A stretch of 37,367 nucleotides of DNA from contig JBHHVM010000002.1 in the NCBI GenBank assembly GCA_046754265.1, forward strand, positions 1-37,367, read 5' to 3'. Each line of letters starts with the position of its first letter. Positions within the stretch are counted from its first letter, which is position 1. Of the stretch, positions 96-23,124 are shown piece by piece. Under the pieces are notes generated by a model that saw only the letters and a list, made by a program, of their open reading frames with translations, was not told where the DNA came from and made no database searches. The stretch comes from Phycisphaerae bacterium (lineage in GTDB: Bacteria; Planctomycetota; Phycisphaerae; UBA1845). A program made the position numbers and the translations under genes.

Positions 96-2144
96 ATGTT
101 GCCTTGCGGTCTGTGGCCGGGACCATTACAATCAATTAGGAAAGCCTGTGCGCACGAGCTAATGAAAGATGCCAGCTCAACATCTCCAGCGCATGAGTCC
201 GGCGTGAATCGGCCATTGTGGTTGGTCACCGCCCTCTTCGTCGTGGGCATCGTGACCGGCTCCTACTGGTTCGCCAAGTCCAGAACACCCGCACCGGCGG
301 ATCCCGGGACGCTTAACGTCCTCCTGATCACCCTCGACACAACTCGGGCCGATTTCCTGGGATGCTACGGTTCACAGGCTGTGCAAACGCCGAACCTCGA
401 TCAGCTCGCGAGCCAAGGCGCCCTGTTTGAGAACTGCACGACCTGCACCTCGCTGACGCTTCCATCCCATTGCAGCATCATGACCGGCGTCTACCCCTTC
501 GTCCATGGCGTGCGAAAGAACGGCACCAACCGGTTACCATCCAACAGCGAGACGCTTGCAGAAATCCTGAAGGCGGCTGGATTGCATACCCGGGCAATTG
601 TGGCGTCGTTCGTGCTCAATCGAATGTTTGGAATCGATCAGGGTTTCGAGGGATTCAGCGAAGTGTCTCGTGGGGCCAACACCATCGCCCTTCATGCTGA
701 GCGCCGCGGCGACGAAGTTTGCGAAGATGCCTTGGGTGCCCTGCGAGACCTGTCATCCGATCGGTTTTTTCTATGGGTACACTTCTACGACCCGCATTAT
801 CCGTATGTGGCCACGGGTGCCGGGTTGTCTAGCCCGACCCAGGCCTACGCTCAAGAGATCGAGTTTACCGACCGTCAGATTGGTCGATTGATCGAGGAGC
901 TCGCGGTGTTGGGCTTGACCTCGCGAACGTTGGTGGTCGTGGTGGGCGACCACGGTGAAGCGTTTAGTGAGCACGAAGAATACCAACACGGATATTTTGT
1001 CTACGACACCACCCTACGCGTCCCGCTGATCTTTCGATGCCCCGGCACGGTACCGCCGGGCCGGAAGGTCCAGGGGCGCGTTCGCACCATCGACGTAGCA
1101 GCCACGATTTGTGATTTCCTGCATCAGAAACCGCTCAGCCGGCAACAAGGCCATAGCCTGATGTCGCTGATTCGCGGCGACAGCCAGGATCTCGACCTGA
1201 ATGCCTACGGCGAATCCCTGGAAGGACACCTGCAATTTGGCCTGTCACCGCTCCGCAGTCTTCACCACGAATCGTGGAAGTATATACTGGCCCCCAGACC
1301 GGAGCTTTATGATCTGCACGACGATCCGGGCGAGTTGAACAACCTGATAGATCGCTTTCCGGAGCGAGCGGCCCAAATGCGCCAACGCCTGCGATCGATC
1401 ATCGCCGCCGCCCCTCCGCCGCCTCCGGACGACGCAGCGGCTCTGGAATTGAGCGCCGCCGACCTGGCCATGCTGCAATCGCTCGGTTACACCGGTGGCA
1501 TAGACACCCAGGCCCTTCAAGGCGATGAGCAAGAGCGGTTTGAGCCGATAGGAAAGGATCCAAAGGACTTCACCGAAGCCATAACCTTGTATTCCCAGTC
1601 TCATTGGGCCTTGACCGCCGGCCAACTGGAATACGGCGAGTCGTTGCTGCGAAGATTGGTCGACCGCGTTCCGTCGGCAGCACATATACGGGCCGATCTC
1701 GCCTTTGTCCTCCAGGAGCAGCAGAAGACCGCCGAGGCCCTTGTCCAGTACGAGCGAGCCGTCGCCCTGGCGCCGGATGACGGCTACGTTCGCCGGATGT
1801 ACGGTGGACTGCTCATGAGGATGGGACGTTGGGACGCTGCGGTCGAGCAGTTGACCCGGGCCGTCGCTGATCGGCCTGACGACCTGGAAGGCTGGTACAA
1901 TTTGGGCGTAGCCGTCGCCTCCCAGGGGCGATTCGCCCAGGCCAGGAATCACTTCGAGCGGGCGTTGGTCATCGATCCCAAGCATGTGAGCTCGATTCAC
2001 GCCTTGGGTGCAGCCTACTTGCGGGAAGGAATGCTCCATGAAGCCGAAGATTGTTTTGGCCGGGCGCTCCGAATCAACCCAAGCCATCGCAGATCGCAAC
2101 AAGACCTGCAACGCGTTCAGCAACGATTGCACCAGAGAGGGTAG
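96..2144 (+). CDS. Membrane-anchored alkaline-phosphatase-superfamily (sulfatase/NPP-like) hydrolase with C-terminal TPR repeats
   Basis: 682-aa ORF; an in-frame alternative ATG at 162 would give MKDASS... TM helix LWLVTALFVVGIVTGSYWF. Metal/active-site blocks NVLLITLDTTRADFLGCYG, TLPSHCSIMTGVYPFVHG and VVVVGDHGEAFSEHEEYQHG. The last ~190 aa are TPR-like repeats (e.g. WYNLGVAVASQGRFAQARNHFERALVIDP). Confidence 0.8.
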   Translation: MLPCGLWPGPLQSIRKACAHELMKDASSTSPAHESGVNRPLWLVTALFVVGIVTGSYWFAKSRTPAPADPGTLNVLLITLDTTRADFLGCYGSQAVQTPNLDQLASQGALFENCTTCTSLTLPSHCSIMTGVYPFVHGVRKNGTNRLPSNSETLAEILKAAGLHTRAIVASFVLNRMFGIDQGFEGFSEVSRGANTIALHAERRGDEVCEDALGALRDLSSDRFFLWVHFYDPHYPYVATGAGLSSPTQAYAQEIEFTDRQIGRLIEELAVLGLTSRTLVVVVGDHGEAFSEHEEYQHGYFVYDTTLRVPLIFRCPGTVPPGRKVQGRVRTIDVAATICDFLHQKPLSRQQGHSLMSLIRGDSQDLDLNAYGESLEGHLQFGLSPLRSLHHESWKYILAPRPELYDLHDDPGELNNLIDRFPERAAQMRQRLRSIIAAAPPPPPDDAAALELSAADLAMLQSLGYTGGIDTQALQGDEQERFEPIGKDPKDFTEAITLYSQSHWALTAGQLEYGESLLRRLVDRVPSAAHIRADLAFVLQEQQKTAEALVQYERAVALAPDDGYVRRMYGGLLMRMGRWDAAVEQLTRAVADRPDDLEGWYNLGVAVASQGRFAQARNHFERALVIDPKHVSSIHALGAAYLREGMLHEAEDCFGRALRINPSHRRSQQDLQRVQQRLHQRG

Positions 2145-2151
2145 GGCATTT

Positions 2152-3945
2152 TCAAGTGGGTGTTGGAGTCTGGGTCTTTCCGAAGAACAGCCAGGCTGGA
2201 ATACCGAACGCAACGGTGGCAACCATAGGGATGGCTGCATCCGAGTACTCCTGTAGCACTAACTTCCCGATGGTAAAGGTAAGTGCGTACAATGCCGCAG
2301 CCGAAAGAGGCCAGGCCAGCAACGACTGCCAGGTCAACTCTGATCGCCCAGCCTCCGGGCATCGCCGTTTCACCGCGTTCCAGAGAAAACCACTGGGGCG
2401 GGCTTGGCGATAAAAGCGTTGCAGTGTGTCCCAATCTGAGTGAGGCGTAAGCAAGGTAACGGTGACCCAAACCAGGGAGCAGGTTACCGACGTGGCCAGG
2501 ATGCAGGTGGTCGCGCTCCAGTCGGTCAACGTTCGAAAGGCAGTCGTGCTCACCAGCGAAGCCACCATGGCGGATATCTCCGACCAGGCGTTGACCCGCC
2601 ACCAGAACCAACGCACCATGAGCACCAAACCGATGCCCGCCTGCAGGTTGAAGAGCACCAGCCAGGCGTCTTTGATGCTGTTCATAAAGTACGCCAGGAC
2701 AATCGACAACAGGGCAAACCCCAGCGTGGCTAGACGCGAAACCCGTATGCACTGCCGTTCATTGGCCAGGGGCCGCCAGAATCGTTTATAGAAATCGTTG
2801 ACGAAGTACGACGCGTTCCAATTAAGATGCGTGTCCACGGTGGACATGAACGCAGCCAGCAGTGAGGCGATCATCAGGCCGCGAAGCCCGATGGGAAGAA
2901 CGTCCATAATCAGCATGGGATAACCCGATTCGCGGTCGGCAAGATCGGGATAGTAGACCAGAGCCACCAGCGCTACGACGATCCAAGGCCAGGGGCGCAA
3001 CGCAAAGTGGGCCACGCTGTACCAGACGGCGGTGAGCACCGAATCTCTTTCCGAGCGGGCGCTGAACATCCTCTGCGTCCCTATGCCTCCGCTACAATCT
3101 CCCCACCACAGAATCGAAAGGTAGACGACAAACGCACTGAGCGGCATCCATTCCGAGCCGCTGCCGGGCCAAAACGCCAGCAGATCCGAGGCCTGATCGG
3201 CGCCAAGCCGGTCCGCCAGCTTCGTTTTGAGGGATTCGACGCCGCCAACGGCATCCACAGCATAGAACGCAAACAGCATCGAGGCGACGATGGCCACTCC
3301 GAATTGGAACAGGTCCGTGATGACGATGCCCCAGAACCCGGACATAACCGTATACAGGGTGGCCGTCACGAAGAGCGCAATCAGCACGATCCATTTCCAG
3401 GCGTCGAACGACCCGGCTGCCCAGCCAAACGAGTTGGCGATGGCCTGCTCCAGAGAAACCACCCAGTGGGGTTCTGCAATCGTCGCACTGACGATCTTCT
3501 GCATGGCCAGCATCACCCAGGCCAGAGTGAAAGTACTGAAGATCACCGAAACATAGAATGCCTTGAACCCCCGAAGAAATGCGCCCGGCCGCCCTCCGTA
3601 GCGCAGTTCGATGAACTCGGCATCGGTGATCACCCCCACGCGACGCCACAGCCTGGCAAAGACGGCGATGGCCAGCGTCCAGGCGACCACCTGGTTCCAC
3701 CACAACCAGTTTCCGGCGATGCCCTTTTCAGCAACGATGCCGGTAATTGCCAGAGGGGTGTCAGCCGCAAAAGAGGTGGCCACCAGCGAGGTTCCGGCGA
3801 TCCACCAGGGCAGCCTGCGTCCAGCCACGAAGAACTCGGCCACACTACCGCCGGCCCGGCGCATGAACAGCAGCCCGATCGTCGTCACCAAAGCGATATA
3901 ACACCCGATGATTGACCAATCCAGCCAATGCATCAGCGACGACAT
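2152..3945 (-). CDS. Sodium:solute symporter (SSF) family transporter
   Basis: 597-aa highly hydrophobic multi-helix ORF. The N-terminal block FFVAGRRLPWWIAGTSLVATSFAADTPLAITG is typical of the SSF family. Its start overlaps the stop of the upstream gene by 13 nt (3933-3945), suggesting co-translation in an operon. Confidence 0.85.
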   Translation of the reverse strand: MSSLMHWLDWSIIGCYIALVTTIGLLFMRRAGGSVAEFFVAGRRLPWWIAGTSLVATSFAADTPLAITGIVAEKGIAGNWLWWNQVVAWTLAIAVFARLWRRVGVITDAEFIELRYGGRPGAFLRGFKAFYVSVIFSTFTLAWVMLAMQKIVSATIAEPHWVVSLEQAIANSFGWAAGSFDAWKWIVLIALFVTATLYTVMSGFWGIVITDLFQFGVAIVASMLFAFYAVDAVGGVESLKTKLADRLGADQASDLLAFWPGSGSEWMPLSAFVVYLSILWWGDCSGGIGTQRMFSARSERDSVLTAVWYSVAHFALRPWPWIVVALVALVYYPDLADRESGYPMLIMDVLPIGLRGLMIASLLAAFMSTVDTHLNWNASYFVNDFYKRFWRPLANERQCIRVSRLATLGFALLSIVLAYFMNSIKDAWLVLFNLQAGIGLVLMVRWFWWRVNAWSEISAMVASLVSTTAFRTLTDWSATTCILATSVTCSLVWVTVTLLTPHSDWDTLQRFYRQARPSGFLWNAVKRRCPEAGRSELTWQSLLAWPLSAAALYALTFTIGKLVLQEYSDAAIPMVATVAFGIPAWLFFGKTQTPTPT

Positions 3946-8880: not shown

Positions 8881-9861
8881 TTAATAACACCAGGACGGGA
8901 AACTAGCGTTGTTTCCCGGGCCCTGAAGACATTCGTTAAAATTGGCCGTGTCCAAGTCGTCGAAAGCGGCATTGCGATTCGCATCCAGCGAGGCACAGCC
9001 CACATCGGTCGGAACACCTGGAAAACAATTCTGGAGTACCCGGAAATCACCCAGGTCCACGTCATTGTCGGAATCCTTGTCGGCCCATAACACCGGCGGG
9101 GTTCCAATCAGCGTGATTTCATCAAAATGGATGATGTTGACGTTCTGTGACGTGGGGCCCGGGCGCCAGATCATGCGAATGGCTTTGATGTCAGCCAAGT
9201 TCAGGGGATCGTTGCCGGCCACCGCATCGTTGTCAAACCCGTCGTCCAGTGCGGCAAAATGGATGGTCACCGTCTCCCATTGCTCGAGCCCGTTGGGCTG
9301 GAATCGCCGGTCAATCCACGGCTTGCCCGGGATATCAGCCGGGACCACGGCCACCGTGTCGCCATCGTCAGGCGCAGGTGGCGGATCCGAATCAATCAAC
9401 TGAAACTGCATGCGTACACCGGGCGTGCCCTGGGTGGCCGGCGGAAAATCGCCCGGGGGCAGTTCCAGCATCACGCGCATGCTGATGCCGGTCCCCTGAC
9501 TCAAGTCCAGATTGATATCGGCGATGCCCGAGCCTTGTGGGCCGCACAGAGGTTGGCCCGGAGGAAACGGTCCAATGCCCACGCCATGGCCCAGGAACGG
9601 CCCCCCCGGCACCAGCCAGTCACCGGTGTGAAACGCCCCGTTGCCGTCTTCTGAGACCACACCTGTGCCGGACGGATCCGCTCCAAAATCCGTCGTCGGG
9701 GTCCCGAAGAAATTCCAATTATCCGGGTCGCAACCATTCGAGTTGATATCAAAATCGAATAGCACCGTGCCCACCGGTACCTGGGCGTGAGCCTGCCGTA
9801 CGCCCCCTACGGTCAGGACTGCGGTTGCCACAACCATGGCGATTCCTAGCCGGCTATCCAT
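8881..9861 (-). CDS. Secreted CBM-like module protein with C-terminal dockerin-like repeat pair
   Basis: ORF 8881-9915. The start at 9861 (MDSRLGIAMVVATAVLTVGGVRQAHA) has a strong SD, GGAGG, 6 nt upstream. N-terminal VLFDFDINSNGCDPDNWNFFGTPTTDFG...GNGAFHTGDW is homologous to the N-terminus of ORF 3933-5735. C-terminal repeats are DKDSDNDVDLGDFRVLQNCFPG and DANRNAAFDDLDTANFNECLQGPG. Confidence 0.75.
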   Translation of the reverse strand: MDSRLGIAMVVATAVLTVGGVRQAHAQVPVGTVLFDFDINSNGCDPDNWNFFGTPTTDFGADPSGTGVVSEDGNGAFHTGDWLVPGGPFLGHGVGIGPFPPGQPLCGPQGSGIADINLDLSQGTGISMRVMLELPPGDFPPATQGTPGVRMQFQLIDSDPPPAPDDGDTVAVVPADIPGKPWIDRRFQPNGLEQWETVTIHFAALDDGFDNDAVAGNDPLNLADIKAIRMIWRPGPTSQNVNIIHFDEITLIGTPPVLWADKDSDNDVDLGDFRVLQNCFPGVPTDVGCASLDANRNAAFDDLDTANFNECLQGPGNNASFPSWCY

Positions 9862-9918
9862 AATGCCCCTCCTCTTGTCTTGCTTGACAATGCCTCGGGC
9901 CCATCGAGGCCACACGGA

Positions 9919-11052
9919 TCATGACCAACGAGGCAATCGGAACACTCGTTGCAATGTCGGCACCACGGCACCGCATACGATGCCGTATTCTCCCAACGTC
10001 GAGGGAACCAGACGAGTGGTTCCGGGACTGCAAGAAAGTTTGTGCTGTTCCAGTATCTTCCCGAGTCGCTCCATAATCATCGCTTGAAAGGCCGCCACGT
10101 CGGAACCAATAACCAGCAAGCCCGGCTCCAACAGGTTGATGGTGTGAACAACCAGGGTAGATAAATCGGAAATGGTGCGATTCAAGGCTGCGACAGCCTT
10201 GGGATCCTGGCTTTCCACGTCACCGATAAAGCCTGCGACATCCAGTCCTCCCTCGGGGCCTGAGCCCTGGGCGCGGACCGCCGGATGAACGATGGGCACG
10301 GTGATTTCGCCAGCCGCACCAAACTCACCGTGATAAGGCTCGCCGTTCACGATGATACCGGCGCCGATGCCCACCACACCGTGCGACGCATCCATGAATC
10401 GAAGATTCAAAAAGACCAGGCTCTTGATGCCCCGTGCTCCCCCAAGAAAGCTCGCGGCCATTCCGCCCGCCAGTGAGTCGTTCACCACATCGGTAGTAGT
10501 CTGCCAACGGGCTTCACACATTTCACGAAAATGAACGTCGTGCCAATCGAATGGCTTGCTCCAGCGAACGATGCCCTCAGCCCCATGCACATCGCCGGGT
10601 AGTGCCACACCCACGCCCAACATCTCGGATTGTTCAATCCCCATCTCGGTCAGGATTTGCTTGCGAATGTCATCTACCCGGTCCAGGGTCCGTTCGGGCA
10701 TAGCAGGGGAAAACGGCTCGCGAATCTGGGCGAGCAAGCTACCACTCAAGTCACATACGCCCGCCAGGATTGCCGTCTCGGTGATCTCAAAACCCAGCGC
10801 CTGAGCCACGCCGCGCCTCAATGCCACCATACGTGGTGCCCTCCCGCCCCTGGTCTTGCCAGCCCCGATCTCCTCCACCAGGCCTTCATCGAGAAGTTGA
10901 TTGACCACCGCCCCCACCGTCGGGGGACGGATCCGTGTCAACTCCGCCAATTCGGCACGGGAAACAGCCCCGTTTTTTCTGATCCTTTCCAAGACCAACT
11001 GGCGGTTGACCACTCGGCTGAGCTGCGGTTTTCCTGTCAGCATATTTGGCAT
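9919..11052 (-). CDS. ROK-family transcriptional regulator (NagC/XylR-like)
   Basis: N-terminal wHTH NRQLVLERIRKNGAVSRAELAELTRIRPPTVGAVVNQLLDEGLVEE followed by a ROK sugar-kinase-like fold (GVALPGDV, GIGAGIIVNGEPYHGEFGAAGE). The ORF-track start at 11088 would use AT-rich, atypical codons, so I prefer ATG 11052 (MPNMLTGK) or 11043. Confidence 0.85.
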   Translation of the reverse strand: MPNMLTGKPQLSRVVNRQLVLERIRKNGAVSRAELAELTRIRPPTVGAVVNQLLDEGLVEEIGAGKTRGGRAPRMVALRRGVAQALGFEITETAILAGVCDLSGSLLAQIREPFSPAMPERTLDRVDDIRKQILTEMGIEQSEMLGVGVALPGDVHGAEGIVRWSKPFDWHDVHFREMCEARWQTTTDVVNDSLAGGMAASFLGGARGIKSLVFLNLRFMDASHGVVGIGAGIIVNGEPYHGEFGAAGEITVPIVHPAVRAQGSGPEGGLDVAGFIGDVESQDPKAVAALNRTISDLSTLVVHTINLLEPGLLVIGSDVAAFQAMIMERLGKILEQHKLSCSPGTTRLVPSTLGEYGIVCGAVVPTLQRVFRLPRWS

Positions 11053-11063
11053 AGAAACAATCT

Positions 11064-11083
11064 TAATAAAGGAGTATAATAAA
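11064..11083. promoter_or_regulatory. AT-rich patch with direct TAATAAA repeats and a perfect TATAAT hexamer in the ROK/GH94 divergent region
   Basis: TAATAAA at 11064-11070 and 11077-11083, separated by 6 nt. TATAAT on the + strand at 11075-11080. This is a conspicuous AT island in an otherwise GC-rich window, immediately upstream of the preferred ROK start. Confidence 0.25.
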
Positions 11084-11374
11084 CTCAATGGCCTACGGAA
11101 AAAAAATCGAAGATTGCACGAAAAGATGCGTTCGGGACCAATAGGCCCCTGATTGACGTGTTTCTGAGGTGGAACAAGCGCCGAAAATGACAGAGAATCC
11201 TCTGATGATGCGACGGGGTTTGAATCTACTCCCCTGGCTTCCCACGGCAGATTTGGGCAAAACCGTCATGCAACGAAGGCTGATTTCAATATCCCCAATC
11301 ACCCATATTGCCCATTGTGTTGCCTGCGCTCTGGTTCGTGGGGGGATTTGCTGAGTTAATTGGGATGAACGCAC

Positions 11375-18731: not shown

Positions 18732-18806
18732 GCGCCGGTAGCTCAGTCTGGATAGAGCATCGGATTTCTAATCCGAATGTCGTGGGTTCGAGTCCCGCCC
18801 GGCGCG
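18732..18806 (+). tRNA. tRNA-Arg (anticodon UCU)
   Basis: Hand-folded cloverleaf. Acceptor GCGCCGG/CCGGCGC (7 bp). D arm GCTC-AGTCTGGATA-GAGC. Anticodon arm TCGGA-TTTCTAA-TCCGA (U33, anticodon TCT, A37). Variable loop ATGTC. T arm GTGGG-TTCGAGT-CCCGC. Discriminator G. CCA is not encoded. Confidence 0.93.
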
Positions 18807-20984: not shown

Positions 20985-22385
20985 ATGACAGGCGATAGAT
21001 CTGATTGTCTTCGACCGCGATTGGTCTGCACGGCTTGCCTGCCGGCGCTTCTTCTCGGATTGGTTTCGAGCCGGACCTCGTTGGCCGATTGTACGCTGAC
21101 TTCCACCGGAAAGACGCCGCTGAATGACCTGGGAGGTGGGACGTACTTGGGGCAGGCGGGGGGTTTGTACCCTAACGGGGGCAACGTTCGGCCGGCGGCG
21201 CATTCGTCGGCTGGGCTGGACATCGCCAACAATCAGATCATCCCGCTCAACGCAGCCGGCCAACCCGACCCGATCAGCGGCGTCATCGTGTTGGTCTCGA
21301 TTGGTTTGTCAAACACGACGCAGGAATTCGCCACGCGGGGCCCCGGCGCGTTCAAGCCTCGAGCGGATGCGGACCCGGCCAAGAACCCGCAACTTGTCAT
21401 TGTCGATTGCGCCCAAGGCGGCGTCGCAGCCGTGCAGTGGGCCAACCCCGCCAACCAAGCCTGGACCGTGGCCGATCAACGGTTGGCCGGGGCGGGCGTA
21501 TCGCCGGCTCAAGTGCAAGCTGCGTGGGTCAAGCTGGCAGAGCGAAGCAGTGACCCGCCCGATAGCACCTTTCCCGCCCACGCCCAATGGCACCAGGCCA
21601 ATCTCGAGCAGGTCCTGCGCAACCTGCACGTCGAATACCCCAACCTGAAACTGGCCTTTATGACCAGCCGAACGCGATCCTATGAAGACAACCCCCAGGC
21701 CCTAAACCCCGAGCCCTTCGCCTACGAAGAAAATTTCTCGGTCAAATGGGTCGTCGAAGACCAGATTAACGGAGCCGGCAACATCAACTTCGACCCGATG
21801 ACCGGGCCGGTGCTGGCGCCCTTTGTAGTGTGGGGTCCGTACATTTGGACCGATGGCCTGGTGCCGCGTTCGGACGGATTTATATGGCGGTGCCAGGATC
21901 TGGCAGCCGACTTTACGCACCCCTCGCCGGATGGCGTCACCAAGGTGGCCGACCAGCTTGTGGCCTTCTTCAAGACCGACCCGCTGGCCACCCCCTGGTT
22001 TCTTCGCCCAAGCGTGATCGGACAACCGCCGACGGTCTCCATCGGGGCCGACGTGACCGCGGGCCCACCACCGCTTGTGGTGCAATTCTCGGCCCAGGCG
22101 GGCGATCCCGATGGCCAGATCACCGAGACGGCCTGGACGTTTGGCGACGGTGGATTCTCGCTGCAGCCCAACCCAGCCAAGACGTTTCCGATTGCAGGGG
22201 ATTACCCCGTGTATCTGACGGTCACCGACAACGACGGCAACGCGGTGACCACCTCCATGACCATCAATATCGCGCCTGGCGCTCCGGTACCGACCCTTTC
22301 GGGGTGGGGATTGGCGGGGTTGGCCCTGGTGCTGGTCGTGGCAGCAGCCAGGGTCATCGGTCGGCGGACTGTTTCAATTCCTTGA
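20985..22385 (+). CDS. Secreted SGNH/GDSL-like hydrolase with PKD domain and IPTL-CTERM sorting tail
   Basis: SD GGAGG 7 nt upstream. Signal-like CLPALLLGLVSS. SGNH-like blocks VLVSIGLSNT (block I Ser), VDCAQGG (block III) and ADFTHPSPDGVTKVADQL (block V D..H). PKD fold PPLVVQFSAQAGDPDGQITETAWTFGDGG...YPVYLTVTDNDGN. C-terminus VPTLSGWGLAGLALVLVVAAARVIGRR (IPTL-CTERM pattern). Confidence 0.75.
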   Translation: MTGDRSDCLRPRLVCTACLPALLLGLVSSRTSLADCTLTSTGKTPLNDLGGGTYLGQAGGLYPNGGNVRPAAHSSAGLDIANNQIIPLNAAGQPDPISGVIVLVSIGLSNTTQEFATRGPGAFKPRADADPAKNPQLVIVDCAQGGVAAVQWANPANQAWTVADQRLAGAGVSPAQVQAAWVKLAERSSDPPDSTFPAHAQWHQANLEQVLRNLHVEYPNLKLAFMTSRTRSYEDNPQALNPEPFAYEENFSVKWVVEDQINGAGNINFDPMTGPVLAPFVVWGPYIWTDGLVPRSDGFIWRCQDLAADFTHPSPDGVTKVADQLVAFFKTDPLATPWFLRPSVIGQPPTVSIGADVTAGPPPLVVQFSAQAGDPDGQITETAWTFGDGGFSLQPNPAKTFPIAGDYPVYLTVTDNDGNAVTTSMTINIAPGAPVPTLSGWGLAGLALVLVVAAARVIGRRTVSIP

Positions 22386-23124
22386 TCGCCAGAAGGTCGT
22401 CCTTGGGGTCGGGCCGATCCTGGATCTTTCGGGCTACGTGTCGCCAGGCGATGCGTCCCGTCTGGTCGATCAACACGTGGGCCGGCACCGCAATGTCGCC
22501 GCCGTCGAGACCGCCCCCGCGATGAACCAGGCCAAAGGCGTTGATCAGTTGGCGATCGGTGTCGCATAGAATGTCGAAGCCGAGCCCGATCTTTTCCGCC
22601 ACTTTGCGGGCCTGGTCCGGTGGATCGACGGCCACCGCCCAGAGTTGACCTCCTTGCCGAGTCAACTCCGCCTGCACCTCTCCGAGACCTCGGAGCTCTG
22701 CAATACAGGTGAGTCACCAGTGACCTCGATAAAAGACCAACAGCACCGGGCCCTTTTGTAGGGCGTCGGCCAAGGCAACTTGCCTGCCGTTGTGATCGGT
22801 GGCGACGAATTGCGGGGCCAAATCGCCCAACTTCACCGCGCCGACTGCGGGTAAACGGGCGAAGACGAAAAAATAGCCGAAAAAGATCGCCACCAAAGCG
22901 ACATCCAGGCCCACGACCAGACGGCTCAGAAATCGACGGTCCTTCCGCCAAGTGGGCACGCCAACCAGTAAACCGGTCCCCATCAGCAGAAAGGCCGGCA
23001 CGCCCGTAGATCGGACCCACGGGACGGTGAGCAGGACCCAATAGACCATGCCGCCCCCGAAAACCAGCAAAAGACTCAGCAGGACTTTGATGCGGCTGGG
23101 CACTTGCAAGGTGGATGCGTCCAT
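22354..23124 (-). CDS. Membrane-anchored peroxiredoxin-like (AhpC/TSA, PRX_like2-type) thiol oxidoreductase with in-frame UGA: probable selenoprotein (UxxC)
   Basis: ORFs 22714-23124 and 22354-22677 are in the same frame, separated only by the TGA at 22714-22716 and 12 sense codons. Joined sequence: ...GDLAPQFVATDHNGRQVALADALQKGPVLLVFYRGHW-[TGA]-LTCIAELRGLGEVQAELTRQGGQLWAVAVDPPDQARKVAEKIGLGFDILCDTD... The TGA occupies the first Cys of the family motif FYRGxWCPxC. The N-terminus has about 3 TM helices. A SECIS-like hairpin follows. Confidence 0.75.
22672..22703 (-). promoter_or_regulatory. Candidate bacterial SECIS element
   Basis: mRNA sense: UUGCA-GAG-CUCCGA-GGUC-UCGGAG-AGG-UGCAG. Lower stem 5 bp (22699-22703 pairing with 22672-22676). 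3x3 internal loop. Upper stem 6 bp (22690-22695 pairing with 22680-22685). Apical GGUC tetraloop at 22686-22689. The loop starts 24 nt after the UGA. The E. coli fdhF SECIS has GCA-GGUC-UGC starting 18 nt after its UGA. Confidence 0.6.

Follow-up and report, generated by a model that had tools for sequence, protein, structure and literature searches.

The window analysed in this study is a 37,367-nt stretch of a Phycisphaerae bacterium genome (contig JBHHVM010000002.1), and on its reverse strand, at 22354..23124, it carries what appear to be two gene fragments. We conclude that these fragments very probably constitute one selenoprotein gene, in which a UGA at codon 137 encodes selenocysteine (Sec). 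This conclusion is carried by a single reading frame, by the homology of the Sec position to Cys, by the conservation of both the TGA and a downstream hairpin (the latter with covariation), and by the fold of the product. The first-pass annotation of this DNA had claimed a hidden selenoprotein at this location. The gene does appear to be a genuine, mis-annotated selenoprotein gene, but it does not represent a new family.

A single reading frame across an in-frame TGA

The gene starts with the ATG at 23124..23122, carries the Sec-UGA at 22714..22716 and ends with a true TGA stop at 22356..22354, all on the reverse strand, as are the other features of the gene given below. In open reading frame (ORF) predictions, it appears as an upstream ORF (23124..22714) of 136 amino acids, whose C-terminal end is GPVLLVFYRGHW (..VFYRGHW) and which is closed by the TGA at 22716..22714, and as a downstream ORF (22677..22354) in the same frame, whose GTG start is separated from the TGA by 12 sense codons. 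Straight translation of 22354..23124 gives 256 codons with a single internal stop, corresponding to a product of 256 residues. The frame is open on either side of the TGA, with 119 codons between the UGA and the true stop.

It had been proposed that the two same-frame ORFs are split only by this TGA and that reading through it yields an uninterrupted thioredoxin-fold AhpC/TSA domain. The ORF coordinates and the frame were as proposed. When Cys was substituted for the stop, the read-through product matched Pfam AhpC-TSA over residues 100-227 (E = 3.3e-25; 88.9 bits, with a cutoff of 26), so that one domain crosses codon 137, and it also matched the Pfam family Redoxin. The putative U137 is the first residue of a U-L-T-C redox motif. 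The resolving Cys of this UxxC motif, Cys140, is encoded by the TGT at 22705..22707; it is invariant in our alignment of homologs (alignment A2) and, in alignments to PDB structures, lies at the position of the peroxidatic Cys of BCP/PrxQ.

A recoded genome, with UGA specifying Trp or Gly, was ruled out, as TGA ends 8 of the 18 confident genes in the window as well as this gene. The other same-frame ORF pairs split by a TGA in the window were rejected as selenoprotein candidates, since all of them lie inside confident genes of other frames or at gene ends.

Conservation of the TGA at the catalytic Cys position

A protein search over 5.8 billion sequences returned 18 relatives. In 10 of these (P0001-P0009 and P0012), the first Cys of W-C-x-x-C is aligned with the TGA column, confirming, with FYRG[HS]W-C-x-x-C homologs, the earlier suggestion that the TGA takes the place of the first Cys in the family motif FYRGxW-C-P-x-C. 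Seven others (P0010, P0011, P0013, P0014, P0015, P0016 and P0018) terminate precisely at FYRGHW. In the DNA of these seven relatives, the stop codon is TGA in every case (7/7), with x-x-Cys after it; on contigs of sufficient length, the frame after the TGA is open for 113-119 further codons, completing the thioredoxin fold. Gene callers have reported each of these seven as two products, a "hypothetical" N-terminal protein and a short ORF labelled "AhpC-TSA", the start of which varies from case to case. The first-pass annotation had expected the gene to be either missed or reported in two pieces, and the latter is indeed what gene callers do with every public copy.

Metagenome contigs were scanned with the pattern FYRGHW-TGA-NNNNNN-TGY. 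At least 120 stretches matched, nearly all of which are open for about 110-120 codons past the TGA. When 1.84 billion cluster representatives (50% identity) were searched with a profile, 210 proteins had E <=1e-30, and 147 new representatives were examined. Among these were 56 multi-transmembrane (multi-TM) fragments ending at the Trp, 26 multi-TM CxxC forms, and five orphan C-terminal halves starting inside the xxC-x-SELRGLG segment. Thus, within the top matches, Sec forms of the clade appear to outnumber Cys forms, with 56 clusters (at 50% identity) compared with 26. A TGA is present at this codon in all distinct Sec-type relatives for which DNA was read. The Cys-type controls from genome contigs were obtained with the pattern VFYRG[HS]WC and hence comprise Cys forms only. 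The standard way to recognize a selenoprotein computationally is by an in-frame TGA that is conserved at the column of a catalytic Cys; its conservation here, over so many diverged sequences, is in agreement with the criteria used in PMC1088965.

That every public copy is annotated as two ORFs, and that TGA serves as an ordinary stop in this genome, would also be expected if the TGA were a genuine stop, leaving either a pseudogene or a 136-residue membrane protein plus a 107-residue C-terminal fragment initiated at the GTG at 22677. However, we consider this highly improbable for several reasons: the same TGA is found in the 120 or more diverse sequences and the 56 clusters described above, which is unlike a pseudogene; the invariant motif xxC-x-[SA]-ELRGL lies in the 12 codons that separate the TGA from the GTG; the downstream starts called among homologs vary from 48 to 84 nt past the TGA; neither fragment has a complete fold or a complete redox motif; and the strain differences past the TGA are all synonymous. 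The alternative of two independently translated ORFs, which the first-pass annotation had named as a possible refutation, thus fails on the invariant Cys and the ELRGL segment encoded between the TGA and the GTG.

If the TGA were a mistake of sequencing or assembly in place of TGC or TGT, the product would be an ordinary CxxC protein; just one transversion would be needed, and Cys forms do occur in related genomes. Nevertheless, an error is vanishingly unlikely as the source of the TGA. Two Logan assemblies from separate runs (L212 and L213) carry the identical TGA, although each is slightly diverged from the window (99.0% and 99.8% identity, respectively); L213 has three differences within the gene, all synonymous and all 3' of the TGA. 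In addition, the TGA is common to all Sec-type relatives, where it occurs together with a hairpin that Cys forms lack. The base call is therefore sound.

Two variants were seen among the relatives. P0028 (278 amino acids), a multi-TM relative, has SxxC at the redox motif rather than CxxC or UxxC and is possibly a single-Cys variant of the clade. In L187:291-344 (reverse strand), the frame past the UGA reads PFCSASWRTTAS, with an apparent 1-nt deletion compared to relatives, suggesting a pseudogene or an assembly error.

The hairpin downstream of the UGA

A hairpin resembling a SECIS (selenocysteine insertion sequence) element was found by folding at 22672..22703, where it had been predicted, its stem beginning at the 11th nt past the UGA. 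It consists of a lower stem of 4-5 bp, a 3x3 internal loop and an upper stem with its loop, in the layout UGCA / GAG / CUCCGA-GGUC-UCGGAG / AGG / UGCA plus a possible U-G pair. The 6-bp upper stem and its GGUC apical loop (22689..22686, 24 nt past the UGA) form a core at 22680..22695. The 32-nt hairpin has a minimum free energy (MFE) of -14.7 kcal/mol (z = -2.61), and one of 200 dinucleotide shuffles was equally stable. Such stability alone is mildly unusual and would not convince; it is the comparative evidence that makes the case.

According to the bacterial SECIS (bSECIS) model in the Fig. 2 legend of PMC13188914, the loop has 3-9 nt with a G among its first two positions, the upper stem has 4-16 bp, the MFE is <=-7.5 kcal/mol, and the distance from the UGA to the loop is 16-37 nt; this G is usually followed by G or U. 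The hairpin in the window falls within these constraints, with a 4-nt loop opening G-G-U, a 6-bp stem and 24-nt spacing. Of 118 distinct Sec forms, 81 passed the same constraints, compared with 4 of the 80 Cys forms and 7.2% of shuffled sequences. Likewise, the local MFE (nt 10-51) averaged -12.4 kcal/mol in Sec forms versus -8.2 kcal/mol in Cys forms (Mann-Whitney p = 4e-11).

Pairing was then compared among eight Sec-type clade members picked by protein motif, independently of structure. Positions 22-26 pair with 33-37 in 39 of 40 cells, and the core is kept in all eight members. The stem changes within the clade comprise one compensatory change from C-G to U-A (in L180) and two changes from U-A to U-G. 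When the 3' arm was shifted by 1-3 columns, total pairing in the clade fell from 80% to 28-52%. By comparison, the four closest Cys-type homologs (L012-L015, from metagenome-assembled genomes (MAGs) of Phycisphaerae and Planctomycetales) have 8 of 32 cells paired and no hairpin. These four encode the same E-L-R/K-G-L peptide with the codons CUG-CGC-GGC-CUG, whereas the window core, spanning L-R-G-L-G-E, uses the rarer codons CUC, CGA, GGU, CUC and GGA, each accounting for 14-18% of the use for its amino acid in the contig. All six core pairs arise in 1.2% of synonymous recodings. These comparisons support the proposal that the hairpin is a SECIS element, in that it is conserved and separates Sec from Cys forms. 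This holds for the upper 6-bp stem and the GGUC loop; the lower stem is specific to the window and is not conserved (alignment A4).

A sister subfamily of 50 sequences covaries very strongly, with 85 double-change cells, a number reached by none of 500 shuffles; as this subfamily was defined by having the hairpin, its paired percentage is biased. Across the family, apical loops start at three preferred sites (nt 20, 25 and 28 from the U of the UGA), and the loops (AGUUG, GGN and GGU(C)) sit on quite different stems. One Cys-type sequence, L017:2695-2755 (CPFCMSELQDLQ), retains the hairpin GCUGCAG-GAU-CUGCAGC at the SECIS position, which reflects either a recent Sec-to-Cys conversion or a by-product of palindromic Leu-Gln codons.

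Several observations weigh against the selenoprotein reading. In its 71-nt context, the hairpin has a z of only -0.96, and the upper stem-loop taken by itself lies exactly at the -7.5 kcal/mol threshold, a borderline value. The overall MFE test was non-significant, with 20% of synonymous recodings being as stable as the native sequence. Hairpin conservation is partly confounded with conservation of the ELRGLG peptide, and in the clade member L004 the stem in this register is weaker, with a better stem lying 6 nt downstream of it. Rfam searches of the locus, at the gathering threshold and with E up to 10, gave only chance miRNA-like matches, although Rfam may hold no bacterial SECIS model. None of selA, selB, selD and the tRNA-Sec gene is present within the 37-kb window, the one tRNA gene of which is a tRNA-Arg(TCT) at 18732-18806. 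For the protein, the outward orientation discussed below is drawn solely from the positive-inside rule, and helix 2 is weakly hydrophobic.

Selenocysteine decoding

The lack of Sec machinery within the window could be taken to favour reading of the UGA without Sec, by a near-cognate Trp or Cys tRNA or by a suppressor, in which case the hairpin would only stimulate read-through in a generic way. A UGA followed by C, as is the case here, is also commonly regarded as a context in which termination is leaky. We nevertheless regard this as very unlikely. The site is that of the catalytic Cys in a redox motif, the classic position for Sec/Cys exchange, and a Trp or Gly there would destroy the redox centre. 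The hairpin has features specific to bSECIS elements, namely a small apical loop opening with G-G/U and a spacing within 16-37 nt. Moreover, the family is well established among predicted selenoproteins (PMC1088965, PMC2398784 and PMC13188914), and one of its members is found next to selB and tRNA-Sec. This member, which is a distant one, is physically linked to the Sec machinery on the metagenome contig L176, where a selB-like ORF (2264..429), a tRNA-SeC gene (476..381) and a Prx-like (peroxiredoxin-like) FYRGHW-UGA-PYC gene adjoin within L176:74-2264 (reverse strand).

Another alternative is that the gene is a relic, having once encoded a selenoprotein, and that its lineage has recently lost Sec decoding, so that only the truncated product is made. 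Frequent loss of the Sec trait in bacteria, as described in PMC1794560, would agree with such a history. However, near-identical strains differ only synonymously past the TGA (albeit at just three positions), the SECIS hairpin is intact and composed of rare codons, and there is no sign of decay, all of which makes a relic extremely improbable.

Taken together, the selenoprotein reading implies that Sec is probably inserted at this UGA and that the host organism probably decodes Sec. Planctomycetes with complete Sec machinery are on record (PMC4807772), and the gene would provide further evidence for Sec decoding in Phycisphaerae-type planctomycetes. In the mechanism we propose, a ribosome would meet the UGA at codon 137, and the stem-loop CUCCGA-GGUC-UCGGAG, located in the coding region 24 nt downstream, would serve as the bacterial SECIS element. 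The stem-loop would recruit SelB-GTP-Sec-tRNA(Sec), Sec would be inserted, and translation would run a further 119 codons to the true TGA. The resulting product would possess three N-terminal TM helices followed by a thioredoxin-fold domain with U137-L-T-C140. The enzyme would act as a thiol:disulfide oxidoreductase, with Sec as the exposed attacking nucleophile, and Sec and Cys140 would form a selenenylsulfide, by analogy with the CxxC proteins ResA, TlpA and thioredoxin.

Protein architecture and chemistry

The N-terminal membrane region (residues ~13-89; 22858..23088) contains three hydrophobic helices, as recognized by hydropathy, by charge counts and in an AlphaFold model of the Cys homolog P0005 (mean predicted local distance difference test score, pLDDT, 90; predicted TM-score, pTM, 0.83), in which helices 8-37, 42-67 and 72-94 precede the thioredoxin fold. 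The first-pass annotation was thus right in expecting three TM helices at the N-terminus. A K/R-rich loop, WRKDRRFLSR, lies between helices 2 and 3. Lys and Arg residues are concentrated in the N-terminal tail and in this helix 2-3 loop (2-5 per homolog), with one in loop 1 and 0-2 in the segment past helix 3. By the positive-inside rule, these charges would place the catalytic domain on the outer side, facing the periplasm. The short loop between helices 1 and 2 (residues 35-41, PWVRSTG; 23002-23022) carries a conserved D-x-P-x-x-R-[SA]-T-G motif, and its R38 is invariant across 11 homologs in alignment A2. This conserved loop suggests that the membrane domain does more than anchor the protein.

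The thioredoxin-fold AhpC/TSA (Prx-like) domain (residues 100-227; 22444..22827) was identified by Pfam, by PDB hits and by Foldseek on the homolog model, and its nearest solved structures are BCP/PrxQ, AhpE and ResA. In the alignment with the BCP structure 2cx3, R133 lies at the Pro, U137 at the Thr/Ser and C140 at the peroxidatic Cys of the PxxxTxxC signature, while P214 (codon 22483..22485) is opposite the Arg of 'KRA', that is, at the site of the peroxiredoxin catalytic Arg. R133, U137 and P214 are invariant in the clade, as are A212 and A215 in alignment A2. From its position, P214 would be the cis-Pro typical of thioredoxin-type oxidoreductases, presumably in the cis conformation.

A peroxiredoxin proper was considered and rejected, as both the PxxxT/SxxC(U) signature and the catalytic Arg are missing in the alignment. 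The earlier description of the product as Prx-like stands with respect to the thioredoxin fold, but the Sec occupies the position of the N-terminal nucleophile of CxxC and not that of the Prx peroxidatic Cys. Because a CxxC-type motif together with a Pro is the thioredoxin/ResA arrangement, the chemistry is most likely thiol:disulfide exchange via a U137-C140 selenenylsulfide, rather than peroxide reduction.

Neighbouring genes

No conserved gene neighbourhood was found among the window, L001, L214 and L215, and the gene context gave no functional inference. The convergent neighbour at 20985-22385 (forward strand) encodes a PKD-domain protein with the C-terminus PVPTLSGWGLAGLALVLVVAAARVIGRR and shares its last 32 nt with the 3' end of the selenoprotein gene. 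We take this C-terminus to resemble a sorting tail of the IPTL/PEP-CTERM type. At 8881-11088 (reverse strand), a ROK-family ORF ends in a TGA at 9919-9921, and a same-frame ORF (8881..9915) with no Pfam hit follows 3 nt on; this is probably mere adjacency. The genes of the window (1-37367) include those for sulfatase-TPR, N-terminal methylation-motif, dockerin/LTD and PKD proteins, PutA, and AddA/AddB-like nuclease-helicases. As a set, these genes are typical of Planctomycetota, which is consistent with the nearest homologs being from Phycisphaerae MAGs.

Significance and comparison with known systems

Our results point to a membrane-bound, probably extracytoplasmic, selenocysteine thiol:disulfide oxidoreductase. 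Standard gene callers break this real gene up, reporting a "hypothetical membrane protein" and, separately, a truncated "AhpC/TSA" fragment. Dozens of public clusters at 50% identity are mis-annotated in the same way, with consequences for annotation quality, for pangenome counts and for estimates of selenium use in Planctomycetota. The concepts of selenoproteins and SECIS elements are unchanged by this finding, and the gene is a modest, ordinary member of its family.

The hairpin had been likened to the SECIS element of E. coli fdhF. The comparison holds for the GGUC apical loop: both are stem-loops in the coding region that follow a UGA-C, with G-G-U at the start of the loop. The 46-nt fdhF stretch used for this comparison, TGACACGGCCCATCGGTTGCAGGTCTGCACC, is present in the fdhF gene of 5419 of 5426 E. 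coli genomes. However, the spacing is not the same, as the loop lies 18 nt past the UGA in fdhF versus 24 nt in the window; the stems are unrelated, and the window hairpin has no obvious bulged U.

The Sec-containing peroxiredoxins (Sec-Prx, TxxU; PrxU, NF040737) share the superfamily fold, and Foldseek with the homolog model retrieved BCP/PrxQ and AhpE with target TM-scores of 0.76-0.88. In Sec-Prx, however, Sec is the peroxidatic residue, which corresponds to the position of C140 here, whereas the Sec in the window is three residues earlier, at the Thr of Prx. Furthermore, the Pro and the Arg of Prx become R133 and P214 in the window, and the product scores 22.5 bits with the PrxU model, whose cutoff is 270.

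The best NCBIfam match was SelL/SelL-related (NF040769, PRX_like2-type; E = 4.2e-18), with which the window product shares the Prx-like fold and a co-located redox motif. Still, the 65.6 bits obtained are far under the cutoff of 120 and cover residues 103-199 only. SelL proper is a eukaryotic UxxU protein.

The product also resembles ResA, TlpA and CcmG/DsbE in having a membrane anchor followed by a thioredoxin-fold domain, a CxxC-type motif, a Pro at the cis-Pro site and a domain predicted to face outward. ResA was matched in both PDB and NCBIfam, and, in a further likeness to it, a Glu lies at +3 from the second Cys in the window (C140-I-A-E143); the counterpart of C140/E143 in ResA is presumably C77...E80. 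The NCBIfam scores are far under the cutoffs for all three (ResA, 54.4 vs 170; DsbE, 28.7 vs 123; TlpA, 23.3 vs 230), and, unlike these proteins, the window product has three TM helices rather than one and Sec in place of Cys. Neither cytochrome c maturation genes nor ccdA/dsbD genes were found near the gene in the neighbourhoods compared.

We assign the gene, as a new member, to the "Prx-like thiol:disulfide oxidoreductase" (UxxC) selenoprotein family. The family itself is not new, having been described in 2004-2005 and known for about 20 years. It is part of the Sargasso Sea and Global Ocean Sampling (GOS) selenoproteomes; PMC2398784 lists "Prx-like 1, pfam00578, UxxC" in the GOS data with 225 selenoproteins and 2,740 Cys homologs, and PMC1794560 records the family in Geobacter, Syntrophus and Desulfotalea. 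In a 2026 review (PMC13188914), it appears as "Prx-like thiol:disulfide oxidoreductase, PF00578, UxxC/UxxU", predicted with high confidence and counted as predicted rather than experimentally verified. With this family, the window product shares the PF00578 domain spanning the UGA (the Pfam match given above), the UGA at the first position of UxxC, and the pairing of Sec with Cys in CxxC homologs.

No description of the three-TM architecture or of the planctomycete distribution was found in the retrieved passages of the family papers, the word 'membrane' having 0 occurrences in PMC2398784. It is possible, though we hold it to be rather doubtful, that the three-TM, probably periplasm-facing form is a distinct, undescribed Prx-like UxxC subfamily centred on Planctomycetota (Phycisphaerae), the membrane domain of which does more than anchor, for instance by providing a docking site for a membrane electron donor or for a substrate. 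If this were true, a widespread extracytoplasmic selenoenzyme would be systematically absent from annotations. Compared with the rest of the family, the clade to which the window gene belongs has a membrane domain of three helices at the N-terminus, bearing the conserved D-x-P-x-x-R-[SA]-T-G loop, and its closest relatives are from MAGs of Phycisphaerae and other Planctomycetota, not from Deltaproteobacteria or marine plankton.

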